Of a stretch of DNA of 64,000 bases, positions 2,118 to 55,055 are shown piece by piece; within the stretch, counting starts at the first letter, position 1; the number at the start of each line of letters is the position of its first letter. Origin of the DNA: a phage; NCBI GenBank assembly GCA_024449565.1, contig GCA_024449565.1_4810.1; one strand, given 5' to 3'. The notes under the pieces were generated by a model. The model was not told where the DNA came from. It saw only the letters and a list, made by a program, of their open reading frames with translations, and did not search any database. Made by a program: the position numbers and the translations under genes.

Positions 2118-2333
2118 ATGAAACTCATCGACCGCGCCATCAAAGCCATTGATAATCACTCCACAGCGATTGCTTTCGTAATGGGATTTTGTTTCACTGC
2201 TGCGTTTGGCGACGTTCACACATTCAAGTCTGTCATCTTGTGTTGGTCCATTTGGTCACTTATTTCTCTGGTTTTGATTCTTCCGATGACGTGGCTTGTT
2301 CTTACTTGTCTTGAATCTCAAGGTGAAGACTGA
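2118..2333 (+). CDS. small hydrophobic membrane protein (71 aa)
   Basis: GGAGG RBS 6 nt upstream; two predicted hydrophobic helices. Confidence 0.6.
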   Translation: MKLIDRAIKAIDNHSTAIAFVMGFCFTAAFGDVHTFKSVILCWSIWSLISLVLILPMTWLVLTCLESQGED

Positions 2334-2554: not shown

Positions 2555-2777
2555 ATTAACCTTAACGGTGCCAAAAGAAGTGCTAGACAAGGCATATGCA
2601 GATTCTGTAAAAGAATTAGCCGTAGTGCTTGGAATTGAAAGTGAATTCAACGTTCAGCTTCAATTCCTAAAAGATACTCTTCAAATCAAAGAGAATAGAG
2701 AGGCTGGCGGCGGTGCGCCTTTAGCTTTGGCAATAATCTATGCGGGATTAATTTTGAAGTCTGGAGATGAACTGTGA
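2544..2777 (+). CDS. hypothetical protein (77 aa)
   Basis: Start moved to internal ATG at 2544 preceded by GGAAAG; the longer track ORF 2514 has an implausible N-terminus. Confidence 0.45.
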   Translation: MANELTLTVPKEVLDKAYADSVKELAVVLGIESEFNVQLQFLKDTLQIKENREAGGGAPLALAIIYAGLILKSGDEL

Positions 2778-2929
2778 ATCGTTGGTGCAGTTGGAAGTTG
2801 AAACGTCTTGCCTGGGCCAATGCCGCCAATTCTGCTGGTGTCATCACCGCTGGCGTTGGGTCGGTATGGGATGGCGAAGGCCGTTGGGACTCGCTGTGTG
2901 GCACGCGCCTATTCTTTCGCGTAAAATAA
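2774..2929 (+). CDS. possible small Trp/Gly-rich protein (51 aa, GTG start)
   Basis: GTG start overlaps upstream stop (GTGA); GGAG 9 nt upstream; followed by 8-bp perfect hairpin cccttccc/gggaaggg. Not in ORF track (below size cutoff). Confidence 0.3.
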   Translation: MNRWCSWKLKRLAWANAANSAGVITAGVGSVWDGEGRWDSLCGTRLFFRVK

Positions 2930-2973
2930 TTATCGCCCTTCCCGAAATGGGAAGGGAATTTAAAGAGGTTATC

Positions 2974-3315
2974 ATGAACAACACTTTGTCACAACTGTTA
3001 ATCTGGACTATCGCTGCTATCATCGGCACCGTTATTATGATGTCAAGTGCAAAGGCTGAAACGGATATTTGCGGCAGACTTATTTCTGAAAACGGCGAAA
3101 TTTATTATGGCAACTCAAAAGGTGATTATATATCGCCTGAAGTTTGCGCTCAGAAGAAAGCAGAAATGCAAAAGCAGTATCATGAAGATCAATCTATATC
3201 TCAAGCCGCGCTGATTGAATTAAGTATATCAGCCATCATCTTTCTAATCGTTTTTATGCTCATTATTAAACCAAATAATGGCAGCCACCGTCATATTCCT
3301 CTCAAAAGAAATTAA
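2974..3315 (+). CDS. secreted or membrane-anchored protein (113 aa)
   Basis: Start at internal ATG 2974 with AAGAGG RBS; N-terminal signal-peptide-like segment and C-terminal hydrophobic helix. The longer track ORF 2767 has a junk-like N-terminus. Confidence 0.55.
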   Translation: MNNTLSQLLIWTIAAIIGTVIMMSSAKAETDICGRLISENGEIYYGNSKGDYISPEVCAQKKAEMQKQYHEDQSISQAALIELSISAIIFLIVFMLIIKPNNGSHRHIPLKRN

Positions 3316-3353: not shown

Positions 3354-5264
3354 ATGCCAAGGCTAATATTCAAAAACAACTTTGAGGTCGCGCTCGCTCA
3401 GCCAGCGACGACTTCAGACACCACAATCACAATCCGCTCAGGGTCGGGCTTTCCGACCTTGGGCGCAAACGAGCGTGTAGTGGCGACAGTCGTCGACGCT
3501 GCAACAGGCCTCCAATTCGAAATCATCACTGTAACAGCCGTGGTTGGAAACGTGCTAACCGTGCAGCGTGCACAGGAAGGGACTGCAGCGCGTGCATGGA
3601 GCGTCGGAGATTTTTTATCCATAAGGGTGACGGCTGCCATATTGACAAGCACAGTAAGGAATTTTGGAGAATTACCTTCTGGAATAAACTTAAATGCCCT
3701 TACTGGTTCTTGGTTCGGTCAATACCAGCAGTCTTCTAATTCTGCGGCTTCGCAAGTTCTGAATTATCCTGTAGCCCAATCAGGCAGCCTTGAGGTTATT
3801 TGCTCGGCAAACAACTCTGGTGACCAATCTTGCACGCAAATATACAGCACGAATCCTGACAACAAGCAGTACAAAAGAACTTATAATTCAGAAACAAGCA
3901 CATGGTCTACTTGGGCTAAAATATATAACTCTTCCGACGTGATTCCAGTCTCCAATGGAGGGACTGGTGTTTCAGACATAGGATCAATAAGAAGAGCAAT
4001 ATTGGTGCAAGGACTTGAATGTAATGATCAAACTGGTCCCCAATCATACAACAGCTATCGTTCACCAAATTCAGCATACACATGGAAAATAGATAACTCA
4101 GGACTTGTGCAAGTCATAAAGACTTCTGATGGTTCTGCAGTGCCAATACCTATTGAATCAGGAGGGACTGGTGGAATAACTGCTTATAGTGCAAGGGTTA
4201 ATCTCTCTTTGGATAGGCTGCGCCAAGAAGGTGCTTATACAGAACTGAATTCTGCGAACGGAAGATATAGATTTCTTGTAAATGATTCAGGAGATTGGGG
4301 AGGTTTTGATGGTTCCACAAACGGCTGGAAGCCATTGGCAATAGCGCAGGGAGGGACTGGATCAACCACGTTGGAAGGAGCAAGAACGAATCTGAAAATT
4401 GACAGGTTCTTGCAAGGTGATATTGATACAAAAATATCAACGCCTGATTCGCAATACAACTTTTTCATCACTGACGCTGATTGGGGTCTTTATGATGTAA
4501 CATCACTAAATAGAGTTGCACTCCCAATTGTCAGCGGCGGCACAGGCGGAGTAACTGCTGTTGAATCTTGCAAGTCTCTCGCAGCGATGCATTATAAATA
4601 CCCAGCGCAAACATCATTTGGGCAGCAATACATGGAGACTGGGGTTGGATATTACAGCACTGATCAGTCACCAAGTCCAGGTGGAAGCGGTTCTCCATAT
4701 AACTATGCCGAGATACTTACTATATCTGAATTTGGTAATGGAGCTAACTATTCTCAAATCGCATTTTCAGTGTTGACGGAACAACCGCCGCGATACAGAC
4801 AAAGGTTTGACTCTAATCCAAGGTTGACTAATTGGCGAGATTTCCTTATTCGCGATTTGAATACCAGCGTAGACAGCAACGGATTCATAAAAATTGCTTC
4901 ACCAATAGTCAAAATAAGATTTGATGGATCATTTGAGCTGAACAGCGAGTCAGAAGGCTGCACAGTGTCAAGAGAAGGAAAGGGGCACTATTTGATAAGC
5001 GGTTGCCTCGGATTAAATAGTGATGCCGCCTGGGGAGGCGTTAACGGCGGCTTTGAAATTCCAGTTGATGTGAATAAACAGCCTAGAATTTGGCTTGACT
5101 ATAAAGTGAATGAAGATGGATCAGTTGACGTATTCACATATCACAGGGTGCACAATGATGCCCCAGTTTTTGCAAGGAATAACCTTGAAGGTTATGCAGA
5201 CGGAGACCCAATAGACATACCAAAGGATGCATTTATCTCTGTGAGGGTGCAAATGCCAAAATAA
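3354..5264 (+). CDS. tail fibre-like protein with repeated GGTG motifs
   Basis: 636 aa; GAGGA RBS; four copies of [IV]xxGGTG[GAS]x(6-8)AR.NL motif typical of phage tail fibre shafts; Ser/Asn/Gly/Thr-rich. Confidence 0.7.
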   Translation: MPRLIFKNNFEVALAQPATTSDTTITIRSGSGFPTLGANERVVATVVDAATGLQFEIITVTAVVGNVLTVQRAQEGTAARAWSVGDFLSIRVTAAILTSTVRNFGELPSGINLNALTGSWFGQYQQSSNSAASQVLNYPVAQSGSLEVICSANNSGDQSCTQIYSTNPDNKQYKRTYNSETSTWSTWAKIYNSSDVIPVSNGGTGVSDIGSIRRAILVQGLECNDQTGPQSYNSYRSPNSAYTWKIDNSGLVQVIKTSDGSAVPIPIESGGTGGITAYSARVNLSLDRLRQEGAYTELNSANGRYRFLVNDSGDWGGFDGSTNGWKPLAIAQGGTGSTTLEGARTNLKIDRFLQGDIDTKISTPDSQYNFFITDADWGLYDVTSLNRVALPIVSGGTGGVTAVESCKSLAAMHYKYPAQTSFGQQYMETGVGYYSTDQSPSPGGSGSPYNYAEILTISEFGNGANYSQIAFSVLTEQPPRYRQRFDSNPRLTNWRDFLIRDLNTSVDSNGFIKIASPIVKIRFDGSFELNSESEGCTVSREGKGHYLISGCLGLNSDAAWGGVNGGFEIPVDVNKQPRIWLDYKVNEDGSVDVFTYHRVHNDAPVFARNNLEGYADGDPIDIPKDAFISVRVQMPK

Positions 5265-26914: not shown

Positions 26915-27910
26915 ATGAACATGAAACAACCTGTAATGATTATCGGCGGCGGCTTGGCAGGACTTATTACCGCGTGTCACTTCCCGAACTCCATTGTGTA
27001 CGAAGCAGGGGAACGAGCGCCACAGCACAAGGCGCTGCTACGCTTTCGCGGCGAAGAAGTAAGCCGTATTACCGGAATCCCTTTTAAGGCCGTGACAGTT
27101 GACAAGGCTGTGTATTTTCGCGGTAACTACTATAACGACCATTGCCCAATCAACCTTGCCAATATGTATTCGATGAAGGTCACCAATCAGTTTGGTAGCC
27201 GTTCAATCATGAAGCTTAAAACTGCAACGCGTTATATTGCGCCGGACGACTTCTATGATCAGCTTGTCGATAAACTGGGTGATCGCATATTCTTCAATAC
27301 TCCGGTTGACACGCTTTGCGGCTATAGCGAGACGCCAATCATCAATACATCGCCGCTGCCAGTCATGATGAAGCTGGCAGGAATTGATCAAAATATTGAC
27401 TTTTCATTCGATAAAGCAAACATTCGCGTTTACCGCTTTAAGATTAAACGTAAGTGTGAACTGTATCAAACCATTTACTTTCCTGATTGCTCCGTCAGAA
27501 CTTACCGTGCATCAATCACTGGCGACACATTGATCATTGAAACAATTCCTTTGGTTAGCGTAAGTGAAGCCGCAGTTGAAGCCGCTGGCGGCATTACTCG
27601 TTACCGTGACATTAAGTTGCGTGCAGAAGTTGACGAAGTGTTGACGGCCTTTGGTCTTTCATGGAGTGACATTTCTCTCGAAGAAGTTGAAAAGGTCGAC
27701 CAGAAGTATGGCAAGATTGTCGACATTCCGAAAGACTTGCGACACGCTCTACTCCTACAGCTGACCATGGATTTGAACGTATTCAGTGTCGGTCGATTCG
27801 CTACTTGGCGAAACATTTTGCTTGATGACGTTGCTCATGACCTTGTTGAAGTTGAAAAACTCATCAAAGCAAATAACTATCAAAAATTTGCTTATATTGC
27901 TAATAAATAA
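26915..27910 (+). CDS. FAD/NAD(P)-binding oxidoreductase-like protein
   Basis: 331 aa; N-terminal dinucleotide-binding fingerprint VMIIGGGLAGLITA. Confidence 0.55.
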   Translation: MNMKQPVMIIGGGLAGLITACHFPNSIVYEAGERAPQHKALLRFRGEEVSRITGIPFKAVTVDKAVYFRGNYYNDHCPINLANMYSMKVTNQFGSRSIMKLKTATRYIAPDDFYDQLVDKLGDRIFFNTPVDTLCGYSETPIINTSPLPVMMKLAGIDQNIDFSFDKANIRVYRFKIKRKCELYQTIYFPDCSVRTYRASITGDTLIIETIPLVSVSEAAVEAAGGITRYRDIKLRAEVDEVLTAFGLSWSDISLEEVEKVDQKYGKIVDIPKDLRHALLLQLTMDLNVFSVGRFATWRNILLDDVAHDLVEVEKLIKANNYQKFAYIANK

Positions 27911-39099: not shown

Positions 39100-39130
39100 C
39101 AAGGCTGCCGATTGGCGGCCTTTTATTTAT
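39100..39130 (+). terminator. weak terminator-like hairpin after 38223-39083
   Basis: gccg/cggc stem region followed by cttttatttatc. Confidence 0.3.
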
Positions 39131-39140
39131 CTGGTGCATC

Positions 39141-39659
39141 ATGATAGAAAGAATTGTACCGCTCCTGAAGATTCTGGCCCTTGTCGGCGCGTTTGCCGCT
39201 GGATCATACGTTGAAGACCTTAAGCAAACCAACGCATCACTGGCCAAGGATAATCAATATCTGACATCGCTTAATGAGCGTAAGGACAAGATAAATGCAC
39301 TCGAAGAGCAAATTGCAACTTTACAGGTTGAATCGGCATCGGCATATGAGAAGGGTCGCCAGGAAGCGCAACTGGTTGCTGATGACACTATTGCTCGTTA
39401 CAAGTCTGGGAATATCAAGCTGCGCGAGCAACTCAGCTGCTCCCGTGAGTTACTCAGGAGTGTGCCCGACTCTGCGACCACTGGACGCCTCTCTATCCCA
39501 GAAGGAAACTGTGGACTATCAGAAGAAGATGTCAGATTTCTTGTTCAGTTCGCCGCAGAAACAAATCGATTAAAAGAGAAAGTTAATAGCTTGATTGATA
39601 CTTATAATCAGGCTAAAATAAAAATCGATCAATTCAATGCATCAAAGGAAAATAAATGA
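39141..39659 (+). CDS. i-spanin-like protein (Rz-like): N-terminal TM anchor plus coiled coil
   Basis: 172 aa; TM helix IVPLLKILALVGAFAAGSYV then coiled-coil region; contains embedded lipoprotein ORF in another frame. Confidence 0.5.
   Translation: MIERIVPLLKILALVGAFAAGSYVEDLKQTNASLAKDNQYLTSLNERKDKINALEEQIATLQVESASAYEKGRQEAQLVADDTIARYKSGNIKLREQLSCSRELLRSVPDSATTGRLSIPEGNCGLSEEDVRFLVQFAAETNRLKEKVNSLIDTYNQAKIKIDQFNASKENK
39346..39573 (+). CDS. o-spanin-like outer-membrane lipoprotein (Rz1-like), embedded in alternate frame
   Basis: Track ORF 39295-39573; lipoprotein signal with lipobox-like LVTSLGISSC; entirely inside the i-spanin-like gene. Start codon uncertain. Confidence 0.45.
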   Translation: MRRVARKRNWLLMTLLLVTSLGISSCASNSAAPVSYSGVCPTLRPLDASLSQKETVDYQKKMSDFLFSSPQKQID

Positions 39660-41244: not shown

Positions 41245-41318
41245 CACACTGGATAAATAATTGTTGCGTATAATCTATCGCGCCGTTTTCTAGAATTTAA
41301 TATACAGTGTATACATAA

Positions 41319-41344
41319 AGCCGGAAATTTCCGGCTTTTCTTTT
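41319..41344 (+). terminator. intrinsic terminator after ligase gene
   Basis: Palindrome agccggaaatttccggct then tttctttt. Confidence 0.55.
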
Positions 41345-41419
41345 ATTTACTTTCGGCGTATTTACTTTCAAAACCTTGAGCCTATACTATTAATATTCAT
41401 AATCAAAAGGTGAATTATA

Positions 41420-41962
41420 ATGAAAGCGAACAAATTAAAGATTGTTTTGATCATCATCATGGCTATGCTGACAGTTATATTCTTCACCAAGACTGCATCG
41501 GCTGAAAATATGTTTACGCCGCCGAATGGAAGTGCAAAAGTTTTGACAAGATATTTCAACAATGGGCAGTCATTTGAGTTTTGCTGGAATAAATACGACG
41601 TAATAAAAGAAAGATTTGACAAAGAAAAGATGTGCGTAATGAATGATCGCGGTCGGCAGGTCGTGTCGTTTGTGTTCGGAATGTCAATGGCAAAAGTTGA
41701 TGCCCCTGAAATCGTTGTCAGGTATAATACATTGGACAGCGGCCTTGTCGACAAGACATACCCTGTTGCAGTAGACAGCAGGACAGGCGGCGCACTAATA
41801 CTCACTCCAGAAGATAAATCAGATGTCGTTAACATGCTCATCAACAGCAAAGACGTAATCGTGTTTTATCACATTGAAGGCGTATCAGACTACCAAATGG
41901 CCTACTATCCACTGCCCTTGAGAGATGCTTCAGGTAATGTTAAGACACAGGAAGTGCGTTGA
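41420..41962 (+). CDS. secreted protein with signal peptide (180 aa)
   Basis: N-terminal KLKIVLIIIMAMLTVIFFTKTASA signal-like segment; AAAGGTG RBS. Confidence 0.55.
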   Translation: MKANKLKIVLIIIMAMLTVIFFTKTASAENMFTPPNGSAKVLTRYFNNGQSFEFCWNKYDVIKERFDKEKMCVMNDRGRQVVSFVFGMSMAKVDAPEIVVRYNTLDSGLVDKTYPVAVDSRTGGALILTPEDKSDVVNMLINSKDVIVFYHIEGVSDYQMAYYPLPLRDASGNVKTQEVR

Positions 41963-42189
41963 CATGGGTGGTAGTTATGCAGAAAGATTTGGAAGAAAAC
42001 AAAAGGCTGAAAAAGGCTTTGACGTCTCAAATCTTATCCCTGTTGGTAAAGCTTATTGGGGAGTCAATTAGCAACAAGGTGGCACGGGCCGCGATTGTGG
42101 GTGCAATTGGTATGGCGGGGTATTATTTCGACTTACCAGACATTGATACAAGTTCCGCTCCGCCCGTCCAAGTTGAAGCCGTAAAATAA
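41959..42189 (+). CDS. small membrane protein (76 aa), possible holin-like
   Basis: One hydrophobic helix AAIVGAIGMAGYYF; convergent with the endolysin gene. Function is inference. Confidence 0.4.
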   Translation: MTWVVVMQKDLEENKRLKKALTSQILSLLVKLIGESISNKVARAAIVGAIGMAGYYFDLPDIDTSSAPPVQVEAVK

Positions 42190-42191
42190 AC

Positions 42192-42213
42192 AAAGGCCCA
42201 TATGGGCCTTTTT
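42192..42213. terminator. bidirectional terminator between convergent genes
   Basis: Palindrome aaaggcccatatgggccttttt with A-run before and T-run after. Confidence 0.6.
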
Positions 42214-42214
42214 C

Positions 42215-42859
42215 TTACATAACTGCTAGTGCATCTTTGTAACGCTTTCTTCGCAACTCACCGTGGTTTGCTGCGTTCGGCGCGGCCCCGTTAATCCGCT
42301 TAACGGTTGAATCAAAATTTCCTGCATCCGCAAGAGGAATACAGCCGCTATTCTTAAAGAACCATGCCGCGCTGTCAGCAATGTATTTTGGTTCAGTCAG
42401 AATATCAGGATTGTTCAATGCATCATAGCCTGATTGACGCGTATATTCCGCATAGTTGGCCTTTCCAGTCAGCTGAATGGCACCACGGCCACGGTACTTC
42501 CAACCGTCGCCAGATGCTACTGAACCGTTGCCCATGCGGTTTGCATATGTATTATTGGCGATTTCCACAGGTTTACGGGCAATCGACAGTGCCAATGAGT
42601 TCGGGGCACTTCCAGAGCGACCGTTGACGCTGTAACGACTAGGCCATGTATTGGCAAGACCTTGAGCGGAATAATTCAGATTTTCCACAAAGGTCTTCAG
42701 ACTGCCTGTTTCCACTCCTACGTTTGCAAGCAGCGCCGCGACGGCATTCTTGCTTTTGATTCCGTAGTGCTCACAAGCCTGCTTGAAGGGGTCGACCCAT
42801 TTTTCAGCAACATCCATGCTGCATCCGGTCCCTTTAGATATTACGTTTGCATTAATCAT
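42215..42859 (-). CDS. endolysin, glycoside hydrolase family 19 (chitinase-like) type
   Basis: 214 aa; GVETGS and RGAIQLTGKANY motifs characteristic of GH19 phage lysins. Confidence 0.7.
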   Translation of the reverse strand: MINANVISKGTGCSMDVAEKWVDPFKQACEHYGIKSKNAVAALLANVGVETGSLKTFVENLNYSAQGLANTWPSRYSVNGRSGSAPNSLALSIARKPVEIANNTYANRMGNGSVASGDGWKYRGRGAIQLTGKANYAEYTRQSGYDALNNPDILTEPKYIADSAAWFFKNSGCIPLADAGNFDSTVKRINGAAPNAANHGELRRKRYKDALAVM

Positions 42860-54025: not shown

Positions 54026-54558
54026 CAGAACATCCCCTTGATGCCATTCATCACCTTTGTTGCAACGCCAGTGACGCTGGCAGTGGTTTCTTTTATATAA
54101 GCTATGCCGCGCTCGATGACAGTTGAGTCGGCTGCTTGCGCTGTTTGAATAGACACATCCTGCTGTGTTAATATTTCGTGGAATACCAGTTGTATGGGTT
54201 GTGAAGTTATATTGTCAGCATCTTGGCTGAAATTGTTATTTTGCAGCACCATACGTTCAAATATTAGCCCACGAGAATTTATTGTGTATATCGTGGACCT
54301 GTTTTGCAACATCTTTGCGATTGCGTCGGACGCGCTTTTTGTCTGTGCTATTACAGTCACAGTCAATATTCTAGGCATTTTGACTCTGCCATCGACGATA
54401 TAGCTTCCGTCTTCCCTTTGGTTTTTGAATATCTTTGCTTGGAGTCTTATTTTAACGTTAACAATCGCCCAACCAAGCGTTGACACTTCCCCAAGGTTGA
54501 AGCTTCTTATTGTGAAGCTTCTGTTGGAAAGACTATATGACAATAAATCGATAGCCAT
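54025..54558 (-). CDS. hypothetical tail-module protein (177 aa)
   Basis: ORF track; start overlaps upstream stop. Confidence 0.5.
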   Translation of the reverse strand: MAIDLLSYSLSNRSFTIRSFNLGEVSTLGWAIVNVKIRLQAKIFKNQREDGSYIVDGRVKMPRILTVTVIAQTKSASDAIAKMLQNRSTIYTINSRGLIFERMVLQNNNFSQDADNITSQPIQLVFHEILTQQDVSIQTAQAADSTVIERGIAYIKETTASVTGVATKVMNGIKGMF

Positions 54559-55055
54559 TAAATTGACCCCAATATGCTCTGCACCACGCCTTTTGCAATT
54601 TGCGATGTGCTCTGTGCGCCGCCGTAGCTGGCAAACACGAATGTGTATCTGTTTGTCTTACGACGACCGGACTGCTCAATGGAGTCGCCAAGCGGACCGC
54701 TGATGATGGTCCCGTTCGAAAACGCCACTCTGCCGCCATCAGGATATGTAATAAGCATTGATGTGACATCCTGGATAGGAAGCCACTTGAATCCGCCTTT
54801 ACGAGCGGAAAGCAAAAGCTTTAGGTTTATGTCGTCTTCAGTGTTTGGGATCACTGCAATGGATACGCGAACGACGGCGGCCTTGTCATAAATACAAATG
54901 CCGCCGTCATAAGTAAGTTGATAGCCTACTGATTCAACTTCCTCAATAATTAGCGAATCCTGGTCATCAGACAAAGAACTGATATTCAGCCCAACAGGAA
55001 AAGATTGGAGAGCGACAATTCTAATGCTTGTGCCAAATCCACTAATATTGACCAT
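54558..55055 (-). CDS. tail tube-like protein, paralog of 56006-56473 product (165 aa)
   Basis: N-terminus MVNISGFGTSIRIVALQSFPVG versus MINVSGFGASIRLVASNTFPNG; similarity continues along the protein. Confidence 0.5.
   Translation of the reverse strand: MVNISGFGTSIRIVALQSFPVGLNISSLSDDQDSLIIEEVESVGYQLTYDGGICIYDKAAVVRVSIAVIPNTEDDINLKLLLSARKGGFKWLPIQDVTSMLITYPDGGRVAFSNGTIISGPLGDSIEQSGRRKTNRYTFVFASYGGAQSTSQIAKGVVQSILGSI

Follow-up and report, generated by a model that had tools for sequence, protein, structure and literature searches.

A probable embedded two-component spanin gene pair in the replication block of a Wifcevirus-type Escherichia coli myophage

The window (the whole stretch of phage DNA that was analysed, 64,000 nucleotides) carries two overlapping genes, one wholly inside the other, which are preceded by a terminator-like hairpin. 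The features of this locus are as follows.

39101–39132, plus strand: intrinsic-terminator-like hairpin followed by a T-run, with a 9-bp stem containing 6 G-C pairs and a GAUU loop (terminator scan; also annotated in phage Mansfield)
39141–39659, plus strand: predicted i-spanin gene, starting with ATG and encoding 172 aa (ORF list, phrog_1327, hydropathy, AlphaFold2)
39282–39286, plus strand: Shine-Dalgarno-like AAGGA, 8 nt before the ATG at 39295 (a ribosome-binding site is annotated here in Mansfield)
39295–39573, plus strand: predicted o-spanin gene, starting with ATG and encoding a 92-aa prolipoprotein in the +1 frame, wholly inside the i-spanin gene (ORF list, relatives, annotations)
39412–39423, plus strand: lipobox codons Ile40-Ser41-Ser42-Cys43 (pattern match), Cys43 being the predicted lipoylated residue
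39421–39570, plus strand: predicted mature o-spanin of 50 aa, CASNSAAPVSYSGVCPTLRPLDASLSQKETVDYQKKMSDFLFSSPQKQID, whose +2 residue is Ala and which contains 4 Pro and, at mature position 15, a second Cys

An earlier note on this DNA had described a 172-aa ORF containing a second ORF in another frame. Both are present in the ORF list, with 39295–39573 lying inside 39141–39659 at an offset of +1, such that the inner ORF extends from 0.30 (or 0.39, when counted from a second ATG at 39346) to 0.83 of the outer gene. Kyte-Doolittle hydropathy of the 172-aa protein, taken over 19 residues, peaks at residues 5–23 (1.8), and no other segment exceeds 1.6. The AlphaFold2 model, for which an alignment of six family members served as input (mean pLDDT 79.7), consists of a helix at residues 5–106, a non-helical linker at 107–127 and a second helix at 128–170; the N-terminal transmembrane segment is helical in the model. 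The same note had proposed an N-terminal transmembrane helix followed by a coiled coil. The hydropathy profile bears out the former, and the two long predicted helices may form the latter. Two periplasmic cysteines, Cys100 and Cys124, are invariant in the six aligned sequences.

The inner product begins with a very basic n-region, followed by the h-region LLMTLLLVTSLG. The string LGISSC, previously singled out as lipobox-like, contains I-S-S-C, which was recovered by pattern matching with [ILMFTV][^REKD][GAS]C and also fits the consensus [LVI][ASTVI][GAS]C. The codon of Cys43 is located at 39421–39423, and the second Cys of the protein, residue 57, is conserved in all relatives. Two start codons come into question: initiation at the internal ATG (39346) would give a product of 75 aa, and the same mature lipoprotein would result from either start. 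All five lineages compared (the window and four metagenomic relatives) retain the AAGGA, the ATG at 39295 and the 8 nt that separate them. Residue 52 of the i-spanin, which overlaps this ATG, varies among N, Y, H and D, all of them encoded by NAT codons followed by G, thereby preserving the +1 ATG. Since the Shine-Dalgarno sequence and the ATG are kept while the overlapping i-spanin residue changes only among NAT codons, the comparison favours 39295 as the start that is used, which is also the start annotated in Mansfield and the BASEL phages. Conservation of the ATG at 39346 is uninformative, because this codon falls in the invariant i-spanin motif AYEKGR. With the Shine-Dalgarno-supported start the signal peptide is unusually long, with 42 residues preceding the Cys.

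The pair was compared with the membership criteria of Kongari et al. 2018 (PMC6139136) for embedded two-component spanins, namely a single N-terminal transmembrane domain in the i-spanin, a mainly alpha-helical periplasmic domain, an o-spanin gene that is nested completely within the i-spanin gene and read in a different frame, an outer-membrane lipoprotein signal, and periplasmic cysteines available for intermolecular disulfides. The transmembrane domain was found by both hydropathy and AlphaFold2, and the model provides the two periplasmic helices with their linker. The inner gene is fully enclosed and out of frame; its product, by pattern matching, carries a lipoprotein signal without an inner-membrane retention residue at +2; and the sequences supply Cys100, Cys124 and Cys57.

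Searches of the protein families gave a graded result. The i-spanin matched PHROG 1327, annotated as 'Rz-like spanin' (E 5.7e-27; residues 6–160 on profile positions 9–156 of 158), and the o-spanin weakly matched phrog_4306, also 'Rz-like spanin' (E 8.6e-4 for the 92-aa form and 5.1e-3 for the 75-aa form). The i-spanin gave no match to Pfam PF03245 (Phage_lysis, bacteriophage Rz; gathering threshold 25.4 bits), even at E <= 10. An hhalign comparison of the six-sequence i-spanin profile with lambda Rz was not significant (E 0.098), and the mature o-spanin could not be aligned with lambda Rz1 by BLASTP. The pair is filed here as a putative two-component spanin by its architecture and PHROG family, and not as a demonstrated Pfam Rz member; the latter is not claimed, since PF03245 was not reached and the profile comparison with lambda Rz was not significant.

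The genomic setting of the pair involves three further features.

41317–41348, plus strand: terminator-like hairpin with a T-run, behind the DNA ligase gene (terminator scan; an equivalent is annotated in Mansfield)
42192–42211: bidirectional terminator between the endolysin gene and a convergent gene encoding 70 aa (terminator scan)
42215–42859, minus strand: gene for a soluble GH19 endolysin of 214 aa (PF00182, E 2.2e-7; phrog_181 endolysin, E 4e-69)

The hairpin at 39101–39132 (fold of -15.9 kcal/mol, z = -2.1) is situated downstream of a Pam3_gp34-like gene and ends 9 nt before the i-spanin ATG. At the other end of the pair, the i-spanin stop overlaps the start of a MazG-like gene in the sequence ATGA (39656–39659). 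The spanin genes are the first cistrons of a unit comprising the spanins, the MazG-like pyrophosphatase and the DNA ligase, which is closed by the terminator at 41317. A scan for sigma-70 promoters in the gap between the upstream terminator and the i-spanin start yielded no convincing promoter. Since the unit stands directly behind an intrinsic terminator within the replication block, its transcription probably depends on polymerase reading through that terminator or on a phage promoter that went unrecognised. The plus-strand position among replication genes, proposed in the earlier note, is evident from the neighbours in the window, in Mansfield, in Bas100 and in four metagenomic contigs. The distance to the opposite-strand GH19 endolysin, which had been estimated at about 2.5 kb, amounts to 2,556 bp from the i-spanin stop, and the dispersal of the lysis genes, also noted before, is a layout conserved across the relatives. 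Such dispersal is not new, as unlinked spanin genes are established for T4 (Kongari 2018, PMC6139136).

A 1.1-kb query spanning the spanin locus matched 29 records of Wifcevirus or Wifcevirus-like phages over its full length, at 90–98.5% nucleotide identity, and the identity to Wifcevirus phages amounts to 95–98.5%. The best matches were Bas100, Bas98 and Bas101, followed by WFC, FEC19, ECML-117 and WFH, and phage Mansfield was matched in a protein search with the i-spanin. On the basis of the 29 full-length matches, the window is the genome of a Wifcevirus-type E. coli myophage; a tRNA scan across it found none. The i-spanin is 96.5–98.8% identical to the proteins of ECML-117 (98.8%), Mansfield and Bas98–101. 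The pairs of these phages are essentially the same genes as those of the window, sharing the lipobox, the neighbouring genes and the ORF embedded in the +1 frame, and the Wifcevirus relatives differ from the window pair by few amino-acid substitutions (e.g., the lipobox MSSC in WFC).

Both genes are annotated, together with ribosome-binding sites, in the Mansfield record (2019), and the records of Bas98–101 (2025) carry the annotations 'Rz-like spanin' and 'o-spanin'. Bas98–101 plate on engineered K-12 (PMC11990801). Kongari et al. 2018 (PMC6139136) include ECML-117 among the embedded two-component spanins, where both of its subunits form singleton families. Given these annotations and the catalogue entry, the embedded spanin pair of the window is already known, and the present analysis adds little, arriving once more at an annotation that exists for a standard lysis function. 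It is of practical use for the annotation of Wifcevirus records, most of which, as deposited, designate both genes as hypothetical or leave out the embedded ORF. Spanins are nowhere mentioned in the Mansfield, vB_Eco4M-7/ECML-117 and BASEL papers, and no experimental report on the spanins of this Wifcevirus lineage was found.

More distant relatives were detected in two sets. A protein search yielded four metagenomic relatives (contigs L007–L010), with 57–67% identity by BLASTP and 53–66% in the alignment. The four contigs share the gene order DNA polymerase, helicase, DUF7307, Pam3_gp34-like, i-spanin, MazG-like and ligase, which continues with a secreted protein of ~180 aa and a small protein, followed on the opposite strand by the endolysin and a tail fibre. 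The +1 frame is open in each of them and encodes a basic, hydrophobic signal, then a lipobox of the form ISGC, ISSC or TSSC, and the second Cys. The conserved sequence of the mature o-spanin in these relatives reads SAPxxYxGVCPTLxPLxxSLSxxETxDYQxxMSxFLF, and its alignment with the window protein displays the conserved motifs G-x-C-P, D[YF]Q and MSxFLF. Among the relatives as a whole, the lipobox variants are ISGC, ISSC, TSSC and MSSC. A scan of IMG/VR with the i-spanin returned near-identical Wifcevirus contigs only.

The second set was obtained by tblastn of the i-spanin and comprised Yersinia phage PY54 (28.8% identity, E 6e-13), Burkholderia phage Mica (31.5%, E 2e-6) and the Pantoea phages LIET2 and Nafs113 (E about 1e-11, in the C-terminal half). 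The homologs in PY54 (ORF63) and Mica directly follow holin and endolysin genes, i.e., they form canonical cassettes, in which respect they differ from the window pair. In PY54, Mica and Nafs113, an embedded lipoprotein ORF is present in the +1 frame, and its mature part aligns with the window o-spanin; the motif C..GxCP...D[YF]Q..M..FLF is common to PY54, Mica and the window. Scores against PF03245 were 62.4 bits for Mica, 23.9 bits for Nafs113 and 17.1 bits for PY54. Thus Mica reaches PF03245 and PY54 reaches DUF2514, in contrast to the window i-spanin, which reaches neither; Mica may be considered an indirect bridge from the latter to PF03245. The o-spanin homolog of Nafs113 matched phrog_3198 ('Rz-like spanin') with E 8.9e-6. 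In the annotation of Nafs113, another lipoprotein, encoded upstream, is labelled o-spanin, while the true homolog is embedded in the i-spanin gene.

Compared with lambda Rz/Rz1, the window pair has the same +1 offset of the embedded frame, and its i-spanin plan of transmembrane domain, helix, linker and helix resembles the TMD-CC1-linker-CC2 plan of Rz (PMC6139136). In both systems the lipoprotein o-spanin has one extra Cys and the i-spanin two periplasmic cysteines. No significant direct sequence similarity connects them, however, and the window o-spanin starts earlier in the outer gene (at 0.30–0.39, versus 0.48 in lambda), is less proline-rich than Rz1 and is encoded outside any S-R-Rz cassette. 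The T4 genes PseT.3/PseT.2 share with the window pair their location apart from the holin and endolysin genes (PMC6139136), but the T4 spanins are of the separated architecture and those of the window are embedded.

The classic embedded Rz/Rz1 architecture postulated in the earlier note is borne out by the PHROG 1327 match, the helical plan of the outer protein, the lipobox and the conserved inner frame. The locus very probably encodes a two-component spanin of embedded lambda Rz/Rz1-like architecture, a reading to which we assign a probability of roughly 0.9. What the sequence itself reveals is a helical protein with an inner-membrane anchor and, co-encoded and co-evolving with it, a lipoprotein of outer-membrane type. 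Its mode of action may be envisaged according to the lambda model (Kongari 2018, PMC6139136, and work cited there). The i-spanin would be anchored in the inner membrane and extend its helical domain into the periplasm; it would bind the o-spanin via the C-terminal parts of both proteins, giving a bridge that passes through the peptidoglycan. Stabilisation of the complex would probably involve homotypic disulfides, formed by Cys100 and Cys124 of the i-spanin and Cys57 of the o-spanin. Destruction of the peptidoglycan by the GH19 endolysin would leave the complexes free to change conformation, and in the last step of lysis these would fuse the inner membrane with the outer one or disrupt both.

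Three other explanations were weighed against this one. The inner +1 ORF might be a chance open frame in a coiled-coil gene, untranslated, in which case only the 172-aa membrane protein would be real. Its omission from the annotation of most deposited relatives would fit, although missed embedded o-spanins are a known bias of gene callers (PMC6139136). When the outer gene was recoded synonymously 20,000 times with the codon usage of the window, 1,496 recodings (7.5%) contained an ATG-ORF of 92 aa or more in an alternative frame, which favours this explanation; an alternative-frame ORF passing a signal-plus-lipobox filter arose in only 99 (0.5%), which speaks against it. When the same filter was applied to the six frames of the whole window, which contain 284 ATG-ORFs of 40 aa or more, 2 passed, the second being the Rossmann-type N-terminus of a 331-aa enzyme. 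The earlier note had named beforehand a lack of conservation of the embedded ORF in related phages as grounds for abandoning its claim, and this attempt at refutation failed: the ORF is kept in relatives at 53–66% i-spanin identity. Down to 53%, the lipobox, second Cys, mature motif, Shine-Dalgarno sequence and ATG are kept with it, and homologs occur also in Nafs113 and PY54. Moreover, the third positions of the outer frame are the second positions of the inner frame, and lowered variability at these sites is therefore the expected mark of purifying selection on the inner frame. Across the window and the four metagenomic lineages, the fraction of variable third positions dropped from 0.94 ahead of the overlap and 0.82 in its signal-peptide part to 0.45 in the stretch encoding the mature o-spanin, and rose to 0.83 beyond that stretch. 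The variability is thus halved over the mature peptide (24 of 53 positions there, versus 66 of 73 outside; Fisher p = 5.7e-8). Judged by this alignment, the inner +1 frame is under selection, and a fortuitous frame is exceedingly improbable.

The remaining two explanations accept both proteins and question their role. The pair could be a membrane-anchored periplasmic complex with a function other than lysis, e.g., superinfection exclusion or early envelope remodelling. Phage lipoproteins with exclusion roles exist, and a position in the replication operon, co-oriented with the DNA polymerase, helicase, MazG-like and ligase genes and apart from the endolysin, fits such a function better than a late lysis function; there is also no direct Pfam Rz match. 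Against this, both proteins have homologs in the holin-endolysin-Rz/Rz1 cassettes of PY54 and Mica, the whole window contains no other lipoprotein candidate able to serve as spanin, and the T4 spanin genes are likewise unlinked to the other lysis genes (PMC6139136), all of which makes a role outside lysis quite improbable. About equally improbable is that the spanins are real but redundant, the outer membrane being disrupted mainly by some other, unrecognised factor in this fast-lysing group. The very short latent periods reported for ECML-117 and vB_Eco4M-7 (PMC7048862, PMC11990801) are in line with such a factor, as are the different membrane protein of 201 aa that occupies the spanin slot in the sister genus Kylevirus and a crude lipobox scan of the whole genome of phage Kyle, in which no recognisable spanin candidate appeared. 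Against redundancy, both overlapping frames are under strong purifying selection in divergent relatives, and no candidate for an alternative factor was identified in the window.

In Kylevirus (PA1 and Kyle), this 201-aa glycine-zipper membrane protein is encoded between the Pam3_gp34-like gene and the MazG-like gene, at the place that the spanin pair takes up in the window. The protein has two hydrophobic segments, belongs to phrog_1544 (function unknown) and has no homolog in the window. Its identity as a GTA-type holin with three transmembrane segments was considered and rejected, the best Pfam match being C19orf12-like at 29.8 bits, below the 30-bit cutoff. It is conceivable, but rather unlikely, that the position constitutes an exchangeable envelope-disruption slot in the replication operon, filled by Rz/Rz1 in Wifcevirus-type phages and by the 201-aa protein in Kylevirus. 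Should the 201-aa protein indeed be a non-orthologous replacement, acting as an outer-membrane disruptor or a holin, it would represent a new lysis factor. Within the same rather unlikely reading, the locus would also offer a handle on lysis timing if early co-expression of the spanins with the replication genes underlies the latent periods of 10 min or less reported for these phages.

As to the holin, this phage group is reported to lyse exceptionally fast (PMC7048862, PMC11990801). The N-terminus of the GH19 endolysin contains no hydrophobic or SAR segment (hydropathy maximum 1.18), and some export or permeabilising factor is therefore to be expected. In agreement with the earlier note, which had identified no canonical holin, none is annotated in Mansfield (1–47 kb) or Bas100 (23–68 kb), which between them span the entire gene map of the genus, nor in the 29 relatives under the two regions searched. 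[quoted passage not shown] PHROG and Pfam searches with the small membrane proteins at 2118–2333, 2974–3315 and 41420–41962 returned nothing informative, and homology of the 71-aa protein to Kyle gp019 was unsupported (BLASTP E 5.5). The candidate put forward in the earlier note, a 76-aa membrane protein at 41959–42189, corresponds to the following gene.

41977–42189, plus strand: PA1-LRP ortholog of 70 aa, with the ATG at 41977 that is used in the annotations of relatives (the 76-aa ORF starts at a TTG at 41959)

The start is thus more likely to be at 41977, and the product is only weakly a membrane protein: its best 19-residue hydropathy window reaches 1.23, below the transmembrane threshold of 1.6, and two conserved short hydrophobic helices are interrupted by conserved charges. 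The protein belongs to phrog_5165, of unknown function, and matched no holin family. What speaks for the candidate is its relationship to PA1-LRP. The gene adjoins the endolysin gene in convergent orientation, and tblastn matched phages Kyle and PA1, with PA1-LRP being 52% identical and syntenic. In published work, PA1-LRP of the Pantoea phage inhibited growth and, on co-expression, made endolysin-dependent lysis stronger (PMC11538084); the assays were slow ones of 24 h, distinct from a holin test. The 70-aa protein is a plausible candidate for a non-canonical holin or lysis helper, and the published PA1-LRP cloning primers map exactly onto the orthologous ORF.

In the window, only 9 nt separate the i-spanin start codon, which is served by a weak ribosome-binding site, from the end of a strong terminator-like hairpin upstream of it; taken together, these two features suggest that expression of the spanin-MazG-ligase unit is attenuated and dependent on read-through.

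Window 39101-39132 (+), terminator-like hairpin

In the record of Pantoea phage Nafs113, the label "putative o-spanin" is attached to a lipoprotein gene, ORF67, located upstream of the i-spanin gene, ORF66.

Nafs113 4467-4733, ORF67, 88-aa lipoprotein labelled "putative o-spanin"
Nafs113 4734-5234, ORF66, i-spanin gene

ORF66 itself harbours an embedded +1 ORF, whose product (MKKPWLIIALVISGC...) matches phrog_3198 and is clearly homologous to the o-spanin of the window. The deposited o-spanin call is probably wrong; otherwise, the phage possesses an extra lipoprotein.

In the sister genus Kylevirus (phages PA1 and Kyle), the position between the Pam3_gp34-like and MazG-like genes is occupied by a 201-aa protein rather than by an Rz/Rz1 pair.

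PA1 1753-2358 of the reverse complement (reverse strand), ORF of the 201-aa protein
Kyle NC_048796.1 41649-42254, 201-aa protein

This protein, assigned to phrog_1544, has a glycine-zipper at the N-terminus plus two hydrophobic segments, and may represent a non-orthologous replacement of the spanin pair. A crude lipobox scan of the entire Kyle genome yielded no o-spanin or u-spanin candidate.

The endolysin is subject to modular exchange: at the exact place of the GH19 enzyme of the window, two metagenomic relatives (L007 and L008) encode a 150-aa endolysin of another family, while their spanins and the small LRP-like gene remain in position.

L007 9065-9520 (-), 150-aa endolysin, phrog_90 / phrog_17029
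L008 9078-9530 (-), 150-aa endolysin, phrog_90 / phrog_17029

Directly 5' of the LRP-like and endolysin genes lies a gene that is retained in Wifcevirus, the metagenomic relatives and Kylevirus.

Window 41420-41962 (+), 180-aa protein bearing a cleavable signal peptide of the classical type (…TKTASA|E)

Its product, which has no family match in PHROG or Pfam, may serve as a periplasmic partner in lysis or host interaction.

Two small membrane proteins are encoded near the start of the window, both lacking matches in PHROG and Pfam.

Window 2118-2333 (+), 71-aa protein, two hydrophobic segments, acidic C-terminus
Window 2974-3315 (+), ~113-aa protein inside ORF 2767-3315

The former, divergent from the large terminase gene and annotated as hypothetical in all relatives, is an alternative holin candidate; BLASTP detected no similarity to Kyle gp019, whose position is comparable. 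The latter combines an N-terminal signal or TMD (LLIWTIAAIIGTVIMMSSAKA) with a C-terminal TMD and two mid-sequence cysteines. It has no lipobox, and its topology resembles that of a u-spanin lacking the lipoprotein signal.

The sole false positive of the lipoprotein filter has a Rossmann-type N-terminus (GGGLAGLITAC), and the "oxidoreductase" of Kyle (54048-55010) is homologous to it.

Window 26915-27910 (+), 331-aa protein
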